From Flavobacteriales bacterium (GTDB taxonomy: Bacteria > Bacteroidota > Bacteroidia > Flavobacteriales_D > Sanyastnellaceae): DNA of 64,000 nucleotides. Where the stretch lies: assembly GCA_034439875.1 (NCBI GenBank), contig JAWXBG010000223.1:2973-66972 (forward strand), written 5' to 3'. Every line of letters begins with the position of its first letter. The stretch's first letter is position 1. Of the stretch, positions 6,358-58,922 are shown piece by piece. Both the position numbers and the translations under genes were made by a program. The notes below the pieces were generated by a model. It saw only the letters and a program-made list of their open reading frames with translations. It was not told where the DNA came from and did no database searches.

Positions 6358-6537
6358 GTTTGTTCTGTTTTGTGGTGCAAAGTATCAGTAGCAGATTGTA
6401 ACCTATTTACAATGCGAAAAAATCGCATTTTTTTCTTTTTCCCTTGCGCCCCGCGAATTTATTCTGAAGGTAGTCAGGGCCGCAGAAAGTTATGAACGCG
6501 ATATGAAAACCGCTTAGAAGTACTGGAAAATCTGATA

Positions 6538-6730
6538 ATACCGTATGGCTATCTACAATAGTCCAATTCCGTTTCACTCCATTAGCCTATAACAGCTACT
6601 CTAACGGCATTTACCACTTCATGTATATAAACCCGAATCATTCGATGGAGATATCGGAGTTCATCGGCCGTGTTATGTATTCCCGCAGCGCATTACCCTC
6701 AGGTTATTCCAATGCGTACTGTAGGATGGA
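6538..6730 (+). repeat. composite S-P interspersed repeat unit (copy R1)
   Basis: The S hairpin module (about 6551-6598, inverted relative to copy 11068-11115), a linker and the P module (about 6623-6730) align by eye to 18625-18843, to the reverse complement of 11347-11516, and to 58642-58922. Confidence 0.85.
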
Positions 6731-6776
6731 ATATTTTATATTCAGAATTGGGGTAAAATCCTGTTGATATGGCGAA

Positions 6777-7004
6777 TTATGCCTGATCTCTCTTTTTGTA
6801 CAAATCCTTTATAACAAGGAAAACTGCCAAGTAGGCCAGAGTGAAGAATGCAGAATAAGCAAGAGAATAATCTTTGCCTTGATATTCATATTCACCAGCC
6901 CCGTATCGCATAAAGCGGTCGAAAAGCTTGGTAGAAAGGAGATAACTCACAGTGAAAAGCACTGGTGCTATACTCAGATAGATGATGGTAAATTTTTTGC
7001 TCAT
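6777..7004 (-). CDS. small two-TM membrane protein (hypothetical)
   Basis: A 75-aa ORF with two hydrophobic segments. Its start overlaps the yggS stop by 4 nt, which suggests translational coupling in the serC-serA-DUF1015-yggS operon. Confidence 0.5.
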   Translation of the reverse strand: MSKKFTIIYLSIAPVLFTVSYLLSTKLFDRFMRYGAGEYEYQGKDYSLAYSAFFTLAYLAVFLVIKDLYKKRDQA

Positions 7005-9870: not shown

Positions 9871-10935
9871 TTATCCTTTGGTTCTTTCAAACTCTTTCAT
9901 CACGTCTGCCAATACTTGCACACTTTCTACTGGCAAAGCATTGTACATAGAGGCCCTGTAACCGCCTACTGATCGGTGACCGGCTATTCCACTAATTCCT
10001 GCGGCCTTCCACATTTTATCGAATTCAGCTCCGAGATTGTCGTCGTTGAGTCGGAATGTTGCATTCATCCAGGAGCGATCTTCTAGAACACTGTGGCCTT
10101 GGAACAAACTGTTTCTATCTAATTCATTGTAAAAAGCATCTTTCTTTTCTCTGTTTCGCTTTTCCATTCCCTCTAGTCCACCATTGGCTTTGATCCAGCG
10201 CAGTGTGAGCATACAGCAATATACGGCGAATACAGGTGGGGTATTGAGCATAGAATCTTTTTCTATGTGAGATTGCAGATTCAAATAAGTAGGAAGTTTG
10301 CGACCTGTTTTGCCCAGGGCATCGCGATCAACAATGTACATCACAGTACCTGCAGGTCCCATGTTTTTCTGAGCTCCTGCGTAAATCAGTGTGAATTTGG
10401 AGGCATCGAATTTCTTCGAGAAAATATCTGAACTCATATCACAAACCAGAGGCACATCCACTTTAGGAGTATCTTGAAATTGTGTTCCGAAAATGGTATT
10501 GTTGGAAGTGTAATGCAGGTATTCATATGGCTTGCTTAGGGCAAACGAGGGGATGTAGCTATGATTTTTGTCGGAACTGTCGCCAACAACATCCACATTA
10601 CCTAGCAGTTTCGCTTCTTTTATAGCACCTGCAGCCCAAACTCCTGTGTTGAGATATGCTACATCTCCACCTTCTTTCATGAGGTTAATGGCAGATGTAT
10701 AAAAACCGAGTGTGGCACCTCCCTGCAAGTAAAGTACTTCGTAGCGCTCGGGTAGCGAAAGAATGTCCTTTACCAACTGTCTGGCTTCAGCCATTACGGC
10801 TTCAAAATTTTTGGAGCGATGCGAAATTTCTAACAACGACAGCCCCATACCATCAAAGTTTAAAAGAGCTTTAGAGGCTTCTTCTATCACCTCTTTGGGC
10901 AGAATACTTGGGCCTGCACTGAAATTATATACCAT
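9871..10935 (-). CDS. serC: 3-phosphoserine aminotransferase
   Basis: The N-terminus is the SerC type (MVYNFSAGPSILPKEVIEE), with YAGAQKN (PLP lysine region) and HRSVGGYRASMYNA. Confidence 0.93.
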   Translation of the reverse strand: MVYNFSAGPSILPKEVIEEASKALLNFDGMGLSLLEISHRSKNFEAVMAEARQLVKDILSLPERYEVLYLQGGATLGFYTSAINLMKEGGDVAYLNTGVWAAGAIKEAKLLGNVDVVGDSSDKNHSYIPSFALSKPYEYLHYTSNNTIFGTQFQDTPKVDVPLVCDMSSDIFSKKFDASKFTLIYAGAQKNMGPAGTVMYIVDRDALGKTGRKLPTYLNLQSHIEKDSMLNTPPVFAVYCCMLTLRWIKANGGLEGMEKRNREKKDAFYNELDRNSLFQGHSVLEDRSWMNATFRLNDDNLGAEFDKMWKAAGISGIAGHRSVGGYRASMYNALPVESVQVLADVMKEFERTKG

Positions 10936-11067
10936 AGTCGTATTTTATGATTCGGTCGCGAAGTTATACCAATGCCACAAATAAATTATACCTATGTTAT
11001 ACCCATTCTGCTTATTAAATTGTCCAAACTATTTTATAAACATGAAGTTGTAAATACTGTGGGAGTG

Positions 11068-11174
11068 GCTGTTATAGACCAATGAAGTGGAACGGAATTG
11101 GACTATTACAGATACATAAACGGTGTTACTTGATAAATGGTCCATCCTGCAAGGCGCATTGGAAGTATTTTGAA
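11068..11174 (-). repeat. S hairpin module plus distal arm of a P module (copy R2, left part)
   Basis: 11068-11115 is the cleanest S copy (CTGTTATAG.CCAAT-13 nt-ATTGG.CTATTACAG hairpin). 11129-11174 matches the distal end of P in reverse orientation and stops at the TTGAA target duplication of the inserted MITE. Confidence 0.85.
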
Positions 11175-11346
11175 CCCAGAATACGCATTGGCATTCGCTA
11201 TGAAGTGCTACACCCCACAGATAGCAAGTGCTCTCGCCAGATTATTATTAGATAGTGTATATTCATACATCAAGAATAAGAATCGAGAAAGTGCTTGATA
11301 TCAAAGGGGGTTAGCGCAGCAATAGATTTCCAATATGGATTCTGGG
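11175..11346 (+). mobile_element. 172-bp MITE-like element, copy 1 (nested in a P module)
   Basis: Its ends are CCCAGAATACGCATTGG and CCAATATGGATTCTGGG. It is flanked by direct TTGAA at 11170-11174 and 11347-11351, and aligns full-length with 18844-19015 and 29231-29402. Confidence 0.85.
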
Positions 11347-11516
11347 TTGAAAGTAATGCGCTGCGGATTTACGAAGGAACAATGTAATAACTCGACCATT
11401 GAATTCCCTGGTCTCCATCGAATGATTTGGGTTTATGTGCATGCATCGGTAGGTGCCGTTAGACCTAGCTGTTATAGACCGATAGAGTGAAACGGTATTG
11501 GACTAATGCAGATTCA
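11347..11516 (-). repeat. P module (proximal part), linker and S module (copy R2, right part)
   Basis: Its reverse complement aligns with 6551-6700 and 18651-18800. The S end overlaps the last codons and the stop of the DUF4476 gene. Confidence 0.85.
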
Positions 11517-12234
11517 AGCTCACACGCGCTGATTCTCTATTGACCTTGAGAATAAAAGCGTGGAGCAACTCCGCGCGGTCGTCCAAATCATAAATAGCTG
11601 AAGAAAAACGACTCAAGACTTTCAGTTTGTTTTCTTCAGCATCCAAACGAAGAAGACAAGTGAAGAGTTGTTCAACTTTGAGGCAGCTCATCACGTCTTT
11701 TTGGAGCAGTTTTGTGAGCTTTTGAGACTCAAATAGGGAGTTGTCGACGTCTTCCAACCACTCTTCAAATTCTTCATCAGACAATGGGTTTTCACAACCC
11801 AGCTTGCCTTCGTAATAAACACTTATTTCTGAAATCACCGCTGTTGAGTCAAATGGGACATTTTGCACATTGTTTCTGGCAACACTTTCTGCTGAAAATT
11901 GAAGTTTTGGAACCCCTTTCATTATTTGAACGAAATAGTCGGAGCGGGTATTGGGCTTTAAAGTGATCCACTGCGAAAGGCTAGAATATTTGCCGTTCAC
12001 AAATTCAAACTTAATTTCTGTTTTACCCGCCTCAAGCCCTTGGAGAGTAATTGAATTGCAATAAAAATTATTGACAACTAAAGCACCAATATGCAGTTTG
12101 AAAGAGCAACTATCCGGAGCAGAAATATTCAAAGCAGCCATTTGGGAAGATGCCGCGAAAGTGAGCTTTAAAATGACGACAAGTGATATAAGCAGTTTCT
12201 TTTTCATTTCGTTTTTTATCTTTTCGGTTGTCAC
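11503..12234 (-). CDS. DUF4476 domain-containing secreted protein
   Basis: It has a signal peptide (MKKKLLISLVVILKLTFAASSQ) and a C-terminal region resembling DUF4476 (C.NP.SDEEFEEW...FESQKL...). The alternative ATG start at 12207 is at least as likely as the GTG at 12234. Confidence 0.65.
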   Translation of the reverse strand: MTTEKIKNEMKKKLLISLVVILKLTFAASSQMAALNISAPDSCSFKLHIGALVVNNFYCNSITLQGLEAGKTEIKFEFVNGKYSSLSQWITLKPNTRSDYFVQIMKGVPKLQFSAESVARNNVQNVPFDSTAVISEISVYYEGKLGCENPLSDEEFEEWLEDVDNSLFESQKLTKLLQKDVMSCLKVEQLFTCLLRLDAEENKLKVLSRFSSAIYDLDDRAELLHAFILKVNRESARVSLNLH

Positions 12235-13787
12235 TTTAGTCTATTAAGCATATTTCGTACCAAGGGTAGATTTTTTATTTTTCCGGGAATCCACTGGAGA
12301 GGATTATTCTTTTTGCCACCCATAATACGTGGGAAATACCAAATGATCAGAATTGTGGTGGAGAAAGTGAAAAATGCGCAGAAAATGAGAGTTAATTGGC
12401 CTTCCAATCCGATCAGGGGAGACAAATACAATGAAATGAGGCTAAAGGTTATTACAATCCCCGAAATAATGAATGCAGGTATAAGACTGATAAAAAATTC
12501 GTCCCATTTAAAATCCACCAACGTCATGCTGAGTCGAGTATTCAGGATGAGATGAATGAATGTAGACAAACTGATTCCAATGGCGACCAATTCTTTGCTC
12601 TGAGAAGAGAAAATGGCAATAGAAAAGATCATCAGAATGCAATACACGAATTTAATTCTAGTAGCGCGGAAGACTGCATTTTTGGCTCGTACGAGCGAAT
12701 CGCTGATGCGCGCAATGGTTCGGAAGATCACTGCAGTAAAAAGAATGCGCAATGTCAAGTGAGCTTCTGTATAAGTAGTGCCAAGAAAGAAAGTAATGAC
12801 TTCCTCTGAAAATATTATTACAAAAATGGATAAGGGCATAATGAGAATTGCCATTATGGAAGTGCCTTGGAGCATGGCTTTTTTCAGGCGTTCTGTTTCA
12901 TCTTGAATTTTGGACATCCCACTAAAGAGCACATTGTCTGACAGTTTTCCCATAACAGTTATGGGAAGTCCCATTACATAAGCGGATCTCTCATAGAGAC
13001 CTGCTTCGTATTGAATGCGCGATGTTGGATAGACGCCCCAAAATCGAAGGAAGAAGGGTAGAATTGTAACATCAATTTTTGTAGCCAAGTAGTTTAGCGA
13101 ATTGAATAGAGAACTACCTGCTCCGTAGCCCATTAATTCGCGGGTATATTTCCATTTCCAATTCAGCGATATTTTAACTGGCTCGAAATACCAATACCCA
13201 ATCGTCATCAGAATGTTTTGAGCAAACAAAGCCCAAGCGTAAGCCCAAATGCCGTATCCCAGATATGCGAGAGATAGTCCAATAATCAGATTGCCAACGA
13301 CGATAGAAATGATGCTAGCCAAAAAGAATGATTTGAACTTCATGTTTTTGATCATGATAGAACGTGGTACAGCTCCAAGAGCAGAAATCAAGAAACTGAA
13401 GCAAACAAGCTGCATAACCTCAGGCAAGTCATCCATGTGATTGATCTTTCCCAACCAACCTGCGCTTGCGTAAAAGACAATCGTAAATATTAAACCAAGA
13501 ATAAATGATGTGTAGAAGGCGCCATTGATGTGTTGCTGATGAATATCTTTCCGTTGGATGAGGGCAGGACCAACGCCCACCTGTGCGAATATTTCGGCGA
13601 AACCTAATACCCCCAATATCACCCCCATCACAGCAAATGCTTCTACCTCTAGTATTCGGGCAAGAATCATCATGTACATTAGTTGGATAGCCACCTGCAT
13701 TACCACTGTGAGCATATTCCAACTAAGTCCGCTTACAAACTGTTTGCGGAATCCTCCATTGCTTTCTGTCTTGCTATATTCGTCCAA
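12231..13787 (-). CDS. oligosaccharide/polysaccharide flippase (Wzx-like, MOP superfamily)
   Basis: A 518-aa polytopic membrane protein with a typical polysaccharide-biosynthesis-protein N-terminus (SGLSWNMLTVVMQVAIQLMYMMILARIL). Confidence 0.75.
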   Translation of the reverse strand: MDEYSKTESNGGFRKQFVSGLSWNMLTVVMQVAIQLMYMMILARILEVEAFAVMGVILGVLGFAEIFAQVGVGPALIQRKDIHQQHINGAFYTSFILGLIFTIVFYASAGWLGKINHMDDLPEVMQLVCFSFLISALGAVPRSIMIKNMKFKSFFLASIISIVVGNLIIGLSLAYLGYGIWAYAWALFAQNILMTIGYWYFEPVKISLNWKWKYTRELMGYGAGSSLFNSLNYLATKIDVTILPFFLRFWGVYPTSRIQYEAGLYERSAYVMGLPITVMGKLSDNVLFSGMSKIQDETERLKKAMLQGTSIMAILIMPLSIFVIIFSEEVITFFLGTTYTEAHLTLRILFTAVIFRTIARISDSLVRAKNAVFRATRIKFVYCILMIFSIAIFSSQSKELVAIGISLSTFIHLILNTRLSMTLVDFKWDEFFISLIPAFIISGIVITFSLISLYLSPLIGLEGQLTLIFCAFFTFSTTILIIWYFPRIMGGKKNNPLQWIPGKIKNLPLVRNMLNRLK

Positions 13788-18624: not shown

Positions 18625-18843
18625 AGATTCCCCCGATTTATACCGTTTAGGTATCTGTAATAGTCCAATACCGTTCCACTCCAATAGCCTAGAACAGCTA
18701 TTCAAAAGCATTGACCACTTCAAGCATACAAACCCGAATCACGCGAAGGAGATATTGGAATTCATTGGTCGTGTTATGTCTTCCCGCAGCGCATTGCCCT
18801 CAAAATTCTTCCAATGCGCAATGCGGGATAGACCATTTATTAA
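18625..18843 (+). repeat. composite S-P interspersed repeat unit (copy R3)
   Basis: It starts right after the M23 stop codon. The S module is at about 18651-18700 and the P module at about 18722-18843, with a 15-bp-stem hairpin at 18782-18828. It aligns with the copies at 6.5, 11.4 and 58.8 kb. Confidence 0.85.
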
Positions 18844-19015
18844 TCCAGAATCCGCATTGGGATTCGCTATGAAGTGCTAAGCCCCACAGATAGCACGTGC
18901 TCTCGCAAGATTTTTATTTGAAGGTGTATATTCATACATCAAGAATAAAAACCGAGAAAGTGCTTGATATCAAAGAGAGTTAGTGCTGCAAAAGATTTCC
19001 ATTGCGGATTCTGGG
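18844..19015 (+). mobile_element. 172-bp MITE-like element, copy 2
   Basis: Its ends are TCCAGAATCCGCATTGG and CCATTGCGGATTCTGGG. It is flanked by direct ATTAA at 18839-18843 and 19016-19020. Confidence 0.85.
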
Positions 19016-19036
19016 ATTAAGGAACAGTGTTATTAT

Positions 19037-23662: not shown

Positions 23663-23902
23663 TTACTTCTTAACAGGAGCAGCTTTCTTAGCAGCGGCCT
23701 TTTTAGGAGCAGCTTTTTTCTTAGTCGCTTTTTTAGCGGCTTTCTTAGGAGCTGCCTTTTTAGTGGCTTTCTTTTTAGTAGCTTTTTTAGCTGCTTTCTT
23801 AGGAGCTGCTTTTTTAGCTGACTTCTTAGCTGCTTTTTTAGGAGCTGCTTTTTTAGCTGCTTTCTTAGGAGCTGCTTTTTTTGTTGCTTTTTTTACTGCC
23901 AT
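23663..23902 (-). CDS. histone H1-like lysine/alanine-rich DNA-binding protein
   Basis: A 79-aa protein made almost entirely of KKAAPKKAAKKA repeats. It has its own terminator, and the coding DNA is a tandem repeat array. Confidence 0.7.
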   Translation of the reverse strand: MAVKKATKKAAPKKAAKKAAPKKAAKKSAKKAAPKKAAKKATKKKATKKAAPKKAAKKATKKKAAPKKAAAKKAAPVKK

Positions 23903-23949
23903 GACAAATATAAATTTGGTTTTGCGAAGCGAAAAATAGAACGATTTAT

Positions 23950-29230: not shown

Positions 29231-29402
29231 CCCAGAATCCGCATTGGGATTCGCTATGAAGTAGTAAACCCCACAGATAACAAGTGCTCTCGCCAGATTT
29301 TTATTTGATGGTGTATATTTATACATCAAGAATAAAAATCGAGAAAGTGCTTGATACCAAAGTGGGTTAGCGCTGCAATAGATTTCCAATGCGGATTCTT
29401 GG
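29231..29402 (+). mobile_element. 172-bp MITE-like element, copy 3 (solo, in unique DNA)
   Basis: Its ends are CCCAGAATCCGCATTGG and CCAATGCGGATTCTTGG. It is flanked by direct TTAAA at 29226-29230 and 29403-29407, between convergent genes. Confidence 0.88.
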
Positions 29403-30946: not shown

Positions 30947-31302
30947 AGAATACCTGTGGATAACATCACCAAAGTACATGCATTTTCTGCATCAATACCC
31001 TTTTCAAGCAAAGATTGCTCTAGGTTTTTATTTTCTGCCCCCGGGTTGAAGACAATTTTATGCGCGTTCAAGTGGAGTATCCGGTCTTCATATTCTTTCT
31101 GATTGGTTTCATTGAGGTAGATGCTGAGCAAATCGATTGCTTCTTCTTTCGGCCATTCTTGAGAAATAGCGATGTCTCCAATCATACCTTTGCGTTTTCC
31201 GATTGCATAGACCTGGTAGCCGGCCTTATGGAGCCTGCTCACTGCCATAAAGGAGTAACGTTCAGGATTTGGACTTGCACCAATTACAATAGCTTTTTTC
31301 AT
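30943..31302 (-). CDS. CoA-binding domain protein (YccU-like)
   Basis: MKKAIVIGASPNPERYSFMAVSRLHKAGYQVYAIG is typical of CoA_binding_2 proteins. I prefer the ATG at 31302. Confidence 0.75.
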   Translation of the reverse strand: MKKAIVIGASPNPERYSFMAVSRLHKAGYQVYAIGKRKGMIGDIAISQEWPKEEAIDLLSIYLNETNQKEYEDRILHLNAHKIVFNPGAENKNLEQSLLEKGIDAENACTLVMLSTGIL

Positions 31303-31373
31303 CTTGCAAAAATGCAACTATTACCAATGTTAATTAAAAATGGTCCAAAATATTTTGTGCGTTTGCAGTGGTA

Positions 31374-31449
31374 GATGCCGTTGTGATTTATGTTTAGTTG
31401 AATGTAGCCAAACGAAATTGGACTATAGCGTTAATACAAACGGTATAGT
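31374..31449. repeat. diverged S-type repeat copy (R5a)
   Basis: GCCGTT..AAACGAAATTGGACTATAGCG..AAACGGTATAG matches the linker, the right half of S and the AAACGGTAT tail seen in other copies. The left half is degraded. Confidence 0.55.
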
Positions 31450-31513
31450 ACCAATTCTGCCGATAAAATAGTGCGACCTAATTTATAATCATCAAGTGTT
31501 AAATGCCGTTAAA

Positions 31514-31611
31514 CGCAGAATCCGCATTGGGGGTCGTGTAAAGTTGCTGTTATAGGATAATGGAGTGAAACGAAATTGGACTATTACAGATAACCGAACG
31601 GTATAAGATTC
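31514..31611. repeat. solo MITE-end-like segment fused to an S hairpin module (R5b)
   Basis: CGCAGAATCCGCATTGGGGG (31514-31533) matches the MITE left end. It is followed at 31546-31592 by a full S module and the AACGGTATAAGATTC tail. Confidence 0.75.
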
Positions 31612-32000
31612 TTAAGAAAATCTCTAAAAAACTCTTTCACATTTCCACCAATGCATAAAATATAGGCATTTACAATTAACGTATTCAGGCCAAATTGAGT
31701 CGACTGGTTCACTAAATCTCAGTGGCAGAGCATCCACCATTGATATTTTGCGATTCTCTTGCAGGTTTGGGGGTAATCACAATCGTAATATGTGGAAGAT
31801 GGGCTGTTTTACTTGATTTTATTAGTCTTTCCCCTGCTTTTTGAATACAACGGGAGTGGTCCAAGAGCTTGGAAATGGCCGTCTTTTACGAAATCCTTGA
31901 TATGACAATGGCCGAAATGCCTTCCCTTTTTGAATAGAGGTCTTACGCAATGGGCCTCTGTGCTTATTTTTGCTCGGAAGAGTAAATCAAAACCTATATC

Positions 32001-57670: not shown

Positions 57671-58611
57671 AAAGTATATTCAGGACCATCCTTGAACCCA
57701 ATGAATGGAGCGAAAAAGTATCATTTGGTGATGGAATTTTTTTGATCGGTTCTTGTTTCGCAGAAAAAATGGGTGTGCGTTTTCAGCGATACAAATTCGA
57801 TATCTGCTTGAATCCTTTTGGAATTTTGTTTAATCCGGAGTCAATTGCAACGGCTCTGGAAATGATAATTCAAGGAAAACAATTTTCTATAGATGATCTC
57901 GACTTTGATGGAAGTTTATACCACAGTTTTTATCATCACGGACGGTTCTCAGGCAAAGAACCACAATCTGTAATTGACGAGATTAATAGGGATATTCTGA
58001 TTGGAAAAACTTACCTAGAAAAATCTCGTTTTCTTCTTGTCACATTTGGCTCAGCATGGGTTTATGAAGAAAAAGTAAAGCAACGTATTGTTGCTAATTG
58101 CCACAAATTCCCAAATCAGAATTTTCTGAAGCGACTTTTGACTCACGATGAAATAGTCAATTCTTGGAATCAATTGCTAGGAAAACTGAGGAACTTCAAT
58201 CCTGATGTTCGCGTTGTATTTTCAGTAAGCCCGGTGAGATATTTGAAAGATGGTTTTGCAGAAAATCAATTGTCGAAAAGTCACCTTCTGATAGCAGCAA
58301 ATCAACTTTCGGAGCATGGGGGAGTGCAATACTTCCCGTCTTATGAAATCTTCATGGACGATCTTCGTGATTACAGATTTTGTAGTCAAGATATGGTGCA
58401 TCCAAGTGCTGATGCGGTTCAGTATATATGGGAAAAGCTTTTGCACTCCGCTATGGACTATCAAACCACCCAATTACTTGACTCACTTGAGAAGTACTTG
58501 CTATTGGCAGAACATCGGTCTATGCATGAATCGGAAGAGGAAAAAATGCTGAGGTTGGATAAATCGAAGCGTGGTATAGAGATGCTGATTTCGGGATATC
58601 GACAAGGTTGA
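57667..58611 (+). CDS. GSCFA domain protein
   Basis: The eponymous motif is present (IFLIGSCFAEKMG). It overlaps the GT9 gene by 4 nt. Confidence 0.85.
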   Translation: MKSIFRTILEPNEWSEKVSFGDGIFLIGSCFAEKMGVRFQRYKFDICLNPFGILFNPESIATALEMIIQGKQFSIDDLDFDGSLYHSFYHHGRFSGKEPQSVIDEINRDILIGKTYLEKSRFLLVTFGSAWVYEEKVKQRIVANCHKFPNQNFLKRLLTHDEIVNSWNQLLGKLRNFNPDVRVVFSVSPVRYLKDGFAENQLSKSHLLIAANQLSEHGGVQYFPSYEIFMDDLRDYRFCSQDMVHPSADAVQYIWEKLLHSAMDYQTTQLLDSLEKYLLLAEHRSMHESEEEKMLRLDKSKRGIEMLISGYRQG

Positions 58612-58641
58612 AGTAGTAATACCGATCTTTTACCAATGGTT

Positions 58642-58922
58642 CTTAATAAACGTTCCATACTACATTGCGCATTGGAAGTTTGTTTTGGGCAATGCGCTGC
58701 AGGATATTGCATGCATGAAATGGTTAATGTCGTTTAGAGTGCCTGTAACAGGCCATTGAAGTGAAACTTTATTGGACTATTGCAGATACATAAACCCGAA
58801 TCACGCCATGGAGATATCGGAATTCATAGGTCGAACAATTACTTTGTTCCATCGTGTAGATTCGAGAATCCCGCATAGCATTAACCTCAAGATGCTTCCA
58901 ATGCGCAATGCGGGATAAATTG
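58642..58922. repeat. rearranged repeat cluster: internally deleted P (inverted), S hairpin, full P (copy R6)
   Basis: 58642-58715 matches the distal and proximal ends of P in reverse orientation, with about 75 bp missing. 58741-58789 is an S module and 58789-58922 is a P module in forward orientation. Confidence 0.8.

Follow-up and report, generated by a model that had tools for sequence, protein, structure and literature searches.

We found that the spacer between serC and a gene for a DUF4476 protein holds a three-level nest of repeats, in which element M1 lies within element M2 and M2 within a copy of element M3 (M3a). The locus belongs to a stretch of 64,000 nucleotides of Flavobacteriales DNA (the window, all of which was analysed), and it very probably arose through a series of insertions in which non-autonomous DNA transposons (MITEs) entered one another. 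A sequence-only reading of the window had claimed that positions 11175-11346 moved as a discrete entity and landed in the loop of a repeated hairpin, which it called P. Both claims were confirmed: the unit is exactly 172 bp long, carries terminal repeats and is bordered by a duplicated TTGAA, and once it is taken out the flanks rejoin without an indel and the 13-nt loop is back.

The spacer that separates the two genes is 567 bp long (window 10936-11502). Read on the minus strand, it runs through M3a (11515-11432 and 11145-11129), which encloses M2 (11431-11146), which in turn encloses M1 (11346-11175), and then through a second M3 copy, M3b (table 1); upstream of the serC start, only about 60 bp are without a clear repeat origin. 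The 5′ part of M3a aligns with 6536-6633 and 18640-18732, and its tail is collinear with the tails that follow the hairpin at 18828-18843 and 6728-6745. On either side of M3b, at 10998-11000 and 11126-11128, stands TTA (TAA when read on the minus strand), and the contig L003 represents this same locus. Positions 11000-11030 had been considered as ancestral spacer in common with the relative L006, and this idea was dropped, as the stretch is the tail of M3b. At the other border of the nest, the stop codon of the DUF4476 gene (11503-11505) and its last codons (...SLNLH*; window 11503-11517) fall in the recognisable end of M3a. The length of the protein is the same as in the relatives (which end in ...FLGL and ...LLGNK), and therefore the M3a insertion replaced, if anything, the extreme C-terminus alone.

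Table 1. Coordinates of the genes and repeat elements at the nested locus and of the copies compared with it
Feature	Position	Strand	Remark
serC	9871-10935	minus	Pfam label; serA downstream
DUF4476 gene	11503-12234	minus	Pfam label
M3a, 5′ part (outer MITE hosting M2)	11432-11515	minus	M3 consensus positions 21-60 match
M3a, start of 3′ tail (ATGGACCATTTATCAAG)	11129-11145	minus	cut by the M3b insertion; collinear with post-hairpin tails
M3b, complete 125-bp M3 without M2 or P	11001-11125	minus	89.7% over M3 consensus 2-127
M2, 5′ piece: left end CCCAAATCATTCGATGG, body and 5′ arm (11352-11368)	11352-11431	minus	alignment of the rejoined sequence
M2, 3′ piece: hairpin 3′ arm (the M2 terminal repeat) and half of the loop	11146-11174	minus	alignment of the rejoined sequence
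M1, nested MITE copy, 172 bp	11175-11346	plus	93.0% match to family consensus
M1, left terminal inverted repeat CCCAGAATACGCATTGG	11175-11191	plus
M1, right terminal inverted repeat CCAATATGGATTCTGGG	11330-11346	plus
Target-site duplication, copy 1, TTGAA (minus strand TTCAA)	11170-11174		formerly hairpin-loop sequence
Target-site duplication, copy 2, TTGAA	11347-11351
Second M1 copy, 172 bp	18844-19015	plus	duplication ATTAA
Third M1 copy, 172 bp	29231-29402	plus	duplication TTAAA; unique intergenic DNA
M2, 95-bp variant with intact P hairpin	18733-18827	plus	best paralogous empty site
M2, full length, 120 bp, with intact P hairpin	58795-58914	plus	related empty site; duplication ATAAA/ATAAA
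M1-bounded mosaics, examples	L046:6526-7104; L052:2547-3102; L046:1025-1538		26 other sites

The junction of M1 with its host is exact. Deleting 11175-11351 (177 bp) leaves a single TTGAA/TTCAA, and the minus strand then reads ...ATCCGCAGCGCATTACTTTCAAAATACTTCCAATGCGCCTTGCAGGATGGACCATTTAT. No indel interrupts the hairpin when the rejoined flanks are aligned to 18781-18840, and they also align to three other copies in the window. The intact hairpins to which they had been compared, at 18782-18828, 6681-6730 and 58866-58918, are all collinear with them as described, and the breakpoint falls on the duplicated pentamer; the earlier list had missed a fifth intact hairpin, located on the minus strand within 58600-58740. 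When the rejoined sequence is folded it forms a hairpin whose loop includes TTCAA. The spacing between the arm motifs is 190 nt with M1 present and 13 nt after its removal (190 = 13 + 177). In about 1 Mb of related DNA there are 152 uninterrupted arm pairs 12-13 nt apart (134 of them at 13 nt), while the spacing of 190 nt is unique to this locus. Moreover, the rejoined M2 (109 bp) is identical to the 120-bp M2 consensus at 87 of 109 positions, with an alignment score of 110 against -10 ± 8 for shuffled sequences. When the nested structure was folded as a whole (236 nt), the predicted energy was -70.7 kcal/mol (z = -4.4), and in this model the arms of the hairpin can still pair around the long hairpin of M1 itself. 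The empty sites used here are paralogous (117 distinct intact hairpins), and they serve as valid related controls, as had been proposed. An orthologous empty site was sought with the junction 23-mer GGAAGTATTTTGAAAGTAATGCG, which had 0 matches in metagenome contigs and in genome contigs.

M1 is a classical MITE: it duplicates 5 bp at its target and strongly favours TTNAA. It is without coding capacity, and its terminal repeats start with CCCAG and are perfect over 17 bp in the consensus and degenerate beyond; in the nested copy the two ends are complementary at 14 of 17 positions. All three copies in the window have the identical length of 172 bp. The copy at 18844-19015 follows immediately on the intact M2 with its P hairpin, within an M3 tail, and uninterrupted paralogous sites for it exist in L036, L080 and L072. 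When metagenome contigs were searched for a conserved 22-mer from the interior of M1, 99 stretches were retrieved, and 79 distinct M1-bounded insertion sites were defined in the window and the related contigs (about 1 Mb). At these sites the five flanking positions were T (67/79), T (74/79), N, A (78/79) and A (68/79). The two flanking 5-mers were identical at 39 of the 79 sites, compared with 12.4 ± 3.0 (maximum 24) in 2000 shuffles of the partners. Where both flanks were TTNAA, the central base was the same in 31 of 46 cases and complementary in 7, and therefore the repeats are direct duplications rather than an extension of the inverted repeat. The rare non-canonical targets ATTAA, ATAAA, ATAAT and TTTAT were fully duplicated as well.

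Some M1 copies form tandem dimers with a period of 177 bp and a single TTNAA in common, an arrangement that would result from the entry of a new copy into the duplication beside an old one. The dimer at L011:13173-13521 is matched, at the same locus in another sample, by one copy (L028:1694-1865 and L008), and further pairs of dimer and single copy between samples are L049/L012, L044/L068 and L088/L016. We rejected these differences as proof of recent transposition, because the tandem copies differ by one base and slippage, unequal exchange or assembly collapse explain the difference equally well. M1 is also found at L048:3123-3294 and L093:3883-4054, with ATAAA/TTTAT duplications, in the same A/T-rich centre of M3 in which M2 sits in the window; about 25 paralogous M3 sites are empty at this point, and the centre looks like an insertion hotspot. 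At 31514-31536 of the window there is a lone M1 end (CGCAGAATCCGCATTGGGGGTCG), preceded by TTAAA and adjoining two M3 copies (31290-31640), which is a truncated M1 or the leftover of a rearranged mosaic.

The P hairpin had been regarded as an independent repeat module. In fact, it is the last ~47 nt of M2, a 120-bp MITE with the consensus CCCGAATCACGCG...GCAATGCGGG, and the other "modules" of that description are the 127-bp MITE M3 rather than separate units. M2 makes 5-bp A/T-rich duplications at independent sites (ATAAA at 58795-58914; ATTAA, TTTAA and ATAAA elsewhere; ATTAT in mosaics). The three M3-hosted copies of M2 in the window are without a clean duplication (ATAAA against ATGGA or ATAGA), and so the step from M2 into M3 rests on the empty M3 copies and on the independent M2 sites. 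M3 has the ends TACCG...TTGGTA and, at most of its independent sites, duplicates the 3 bp TAA. In L032 (minus strand, 13328-13454) one M3 lies inside another at CCTATAA|CAGCT with a TAA duplication, a case of self-nesting. A fourth family, Q, is 119 bp long (CCCGCATTACGC...GATTTGGG) and has 5-bp duplications. The ends of these families resemble one another: the M2 right end, which forms the 3′ arm of the hairpin, is identical to the M1 end at 15 of 20 positions, the M2 left end to the Q right end at 16 of 20, and the M2 right end to the Q left end at 15 of 20.

Taken in sequence, the history of the locus began with the insertion of M3a into a short spacer between the DUF4476 gene and serC, and M3b lies in the tail of M3a. 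An M2 of about 110 bp sits in the A/T-rich centre of the first M3, with its ends CCCG...CGGG, the right one folded back on an internal inverted copy to make the P hairpin. The loop of this particular hairpin had drifted to TTNAA and so become a target for M1, the hairpin itself exerting no attraction. M1 entered the TTCAA of the 13-nt loop and duplicated those 5 bp, and the arms now close around the long hairpin of M1.

It is improbable that the M1 transposase prefers hairpin or cruciform loops, even though this insertion lies in a loop and about 20% of the M1-bounded sites (16/78) adjoin another MITE. M1 occupies only 1 of about 118 distinct hairpins. Among the 78 M1-bounded sites with flanks long enough to be classified, 62 lie in unique DNA, 10 are in tandem with M1 on one side, 5 adjoin M3 (on both flanks in three cases and on one flank in two) and 1 lies in P. 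The strong TTNAA consensus explains the choice, and it is carried by very few loops, including this one: typical P loops read AACCTCAAGACAC or GCCCAAAAAAAAC, TTNAA occurs in or at the loop in 2 of the 117 distinct intact hairpins, and the loop of the interrupted copy (ACTTTCAAAATAC) contains TTCAA. The hairpin is not a preferred target of M1, and site choice follows sequence rather than structure; this hairpin was chosen because its loop had gained TTCAA. The same loops bear on the reverse direction of events, in which the filled site would be ancestral and the intact P hairpins would be footprints of M1 excision or deletion. Deletion between the TTGAA copies would yield exactly the intact form, and one locus by itself gives no direction. 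However, the 117 distinct intact hairpins stand against a single filled one, their common loops cannot be footprints, and the hairpin forms an end of M2 itself, an element with its own duplications. We therefore consider such a reversal highly implausible.

Nor do we see much likelihood that recombination placed M1 between the arms through the motifs CCAATGCG/CGCATTGG, which M1 ends and hairpin arms have in common. The resemblance of these ends speaks for it, as do the many shuffled arrangements in which the repeats occur, with M2 in either orientation at the same site. Yet the junctions lie in the loop, outside the common motif; the insert is exactly full length and bordered by a perfect 5-bp direct repeat of the canonical target, and its removal gives back the modal loop length with no indel. 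Among the 78 sites, M1 was joined to arms at the common motif without duplications in none (0/78). Least probable of all is an artefact in which a metagenome assembler misjoined repeats. The source is a metagenome-assembled genome, and two Logan contigs break inside the repeats, ending about 185 bp upstream of serC. The same DNA is nevertheless present in several JGI, ENA and Logan metagenome assemblies, and three independent ones (two JGI, one ENA), from different samples and pipelines, show 100% identity over the 567-bp spacer. Samples carrying the locus include JGI 3300007799 and 3300020192, ENA ERZ27247434 and SRR6448205/7. Every contig encoding an identical SerC has either the filled site or a break within the repeats, and the exact hallmarks of a transposon also argue against a misjoin. 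The related DNA (about 1 Mb) consists of contigs that all come from metagenome assemblies; the title of one related hit is "microbial mat metagenome".

Successive insertion of MITEs remains our preferred explanation, and the order M3a, then M2, then M1 is established for the window locus alone. The sequence-only reading had gone further, holding that the P family had spread before M1 moved. This does not hold at the level of families. In the related contigs, 29 distinct sites carry mosaics of 466-592 bp that are bounded by M1 ends and TTNAA and run from M1 (positions 1-38 or 1-74) through Q, M3 (in some cases accompanied by P1, a bare hairpin) and M2, which includes the P hairpin, to M1 (positions 71-172). 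With M2 and its hairpin inside M1-bounded mosaics, M1 was already there when P-bearing elements inserted, and the mosaic spread later on M1 ends. Mean pairwise identity was 0.920 for M1 (n = 41), 0.916 for M2 (n = 51, mostly copies carried in mosaics) and 0.815 for empty M3 (n = 19). The M1 and M2 families overlapped in activity, and the M3 family looks older. Judging by the identity of about 92% among copies, the families may no longer be active. At one identical mosaic site (ATTAT/ATTAT flanks), the orientation of M2 in L059 and L064 is opposite to that in the others, such as L014, L017 and L052, which suggests an inversion across the terminal repeats or repeated insertion at one hotspot.

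An uninterrupted version of this exact locus between serC and the DUF4476 gene, which had been proposed as a check, was not found in the metagenome and genome contigs searched, and the nearest relatives are without the whole nest. The closest two found (L006 and L007) have SerC proteins 86% and 81% identical and the same gene order, Polysacc_synt - DUF4476 - serC - serA - DUF1015, with spacers of about 90 bp. M1, M2, M3 and Q are all absent from both in 21 kb. Thus, the whole nest is a lineage-specific gain, and these relatives are uninformative on the M1 step specifically. Spacers at 18625-19036, 6358-7000 and 10936-11502 of the window measure about 400-640 bp, against 34-213 bp for the syntenic spacers of L007 and L006. 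Each enlarged spacer holds a repeat cluster, and all repeat clusters of the window are intergenic. A repeat of another kind, with 12/15-nt periodicity (AGC TGC TTT TTT ...), lies at 23681-23920 and would encode, on the minus strand, a Lys/Ala-rich tail like that of histone H1.

Features common to M1, M2 and Q are CCC...GGG ends, terminal repeats that resemble one another and a duplication length of 5 bp. We infer from this that a single DDE transposase, or a few related ones, probably mobilised them in trans by staggered cuts of 5 bp. Judged from sequence, the enzyme may be IS1380/piggyBac-like. Neither the window nor the ~1 Mb of related contigs yielded an autonomous element, or a transposase, with ends that match. 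Pairs of M1 ends 0.7-4 kb apart enclose ordinary genes there, and orphan ends belong to truncated MITEs or mosaics. No multi-copy open reading frame of at least 220 aa occurred in different contexts, the matches being orthologues in L006 and L007. It is possible, but to our mind doubtful, that M1, M2 and Q make up a bacterial group of IS1380/piggyBac-like MITEs that keep almost strictly to TTNAA targets (a 5-bp counterpart to the TTAA of piggyBac), which repeatedly insert into one another and whose four-family mosaic was re-mobilised to at least 29 sites. If true, this would be a natural case in which bacterial MITEs capture others of their kind and spread them, and a highly site-specific transposase would be implied.

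Searches of collections gave the following results. Rfam had no match in the whole window at the gathering score, nor in 10900-11600 at E ≤ 1, and plasmid records had no match to the M1 consensus (distant blastn). In viral contigs the 17-mer M1 end had four chance matches without similarity past the end, one of them within an open reading frame of 1417 aa, and the 22-mer of the M1 core had 0 matches in the GTDB collection of species-representative genomes. A promoter and terminator scan of 10800-11700 gave matches no more numerous than in shuffled sequences.

The nest proves cleanly, with internal controls, that these repeats are transposons, and it fixes their boundaries and the target rule of M1. 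It aids the annotation of a repeat-rich genome of an uncultured member of the Flavobacteriales, whose intergenic spacers, once roughly 35-90 bp long, now measure 400-570 bp. There is also reason for caution, because both nesting directions occur here and a single nested pair is an unsafe guide to the ages of families. In practice the gain is modest. It consists of new MITE families, a candidate site-specific transposase to seek, and insertion markers with which strains in microbial-mat metagenomes could be typed.

Short repeats that are intergenic, hairpin-forming and present in high copy number are familiar in bacteria. The Correia, RUP and ERIC elements are of this type, being 100-200 bp long and co-transcribed with their neighbours, and Correia duplicates TA; none of them has a sequence relation to the families described here. 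Palindromic elements of the REP/BIME or IS200/IS605 type, whose hairpin repeats insert without duplicating the target, are ruled out by the duplications of 5 bp (M1, M2 and Q) and 3 bp (M3). piggyBac has CCC termini and the target TTAA. Its prokaryotic counterparts are IS1380-like elements (PMC5718144), and among these ISEcp1 has the left inverted repeat CCTAGATTCTACGT and 5-bp direct repeats that vary in sequence (ACTCA, TAATA, TAAGA; PMC6061673). M1 resembles the IS1380 family, whose duplications measure 4-5 bp, in its 5-bp duplications, and its ends may be related as well, those of M1 and ISEcp1 both starting with CC.AGA.TC. The M1 end CCCAGAATCCGCAT agrees with the ISEcp1 repeat at 9 of 14 positions, a weak match to the sole IS1380 member compared. 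Unlike ISEcp1 with its varied targets, M1 is non-coding and nearly confined to TTNAA, and neither the window nor the related contigs yielded a transposase of the IS1380 type. TIMEs are non-autonomous elements derived from Tn3, with 38-bp terminal repeats of the Tn3 family and duplications of 5-6 bp (PMC4133298). M1 is like them in being non-autonomous, in inserting into AT-rich DNA and in giving rise to mosaic non-autonomous transposons. However, its repeats are 17 bp long and start with CCCAG, and its mosaics contain MITEs instead of genes; we rejected a Tn3-derived TIME identity, as Tn3-family repeats of about 38 bp are absent. Prokaryotic MITEs that have little in common with their partners beyond the terminal repeats are known (PMC3852290). 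The closest parallel in behaviour is found in plants, where Tourist and Stowaway MITEs insert into one another and related empty sites define their boundaries (PMC5172404); the same source cites multimers as more than 10% of rice MITEs (Jiang and Wessler 2001). Mutual nesting is seen here too, with 16 of the 78 M1-bounded sites adjoining another MITE. In contrast to the plant elements, the host is a bacterium, the families are different ones, and a nested mosaic was re-amplified on the ends of its outer element. M1, M2, M3 and Q are new MITE families that show a well-known phenomenon. More unusual are the four-family mosaic, which was itself amplified again, and the almost strict choice of TTNAA as a target.
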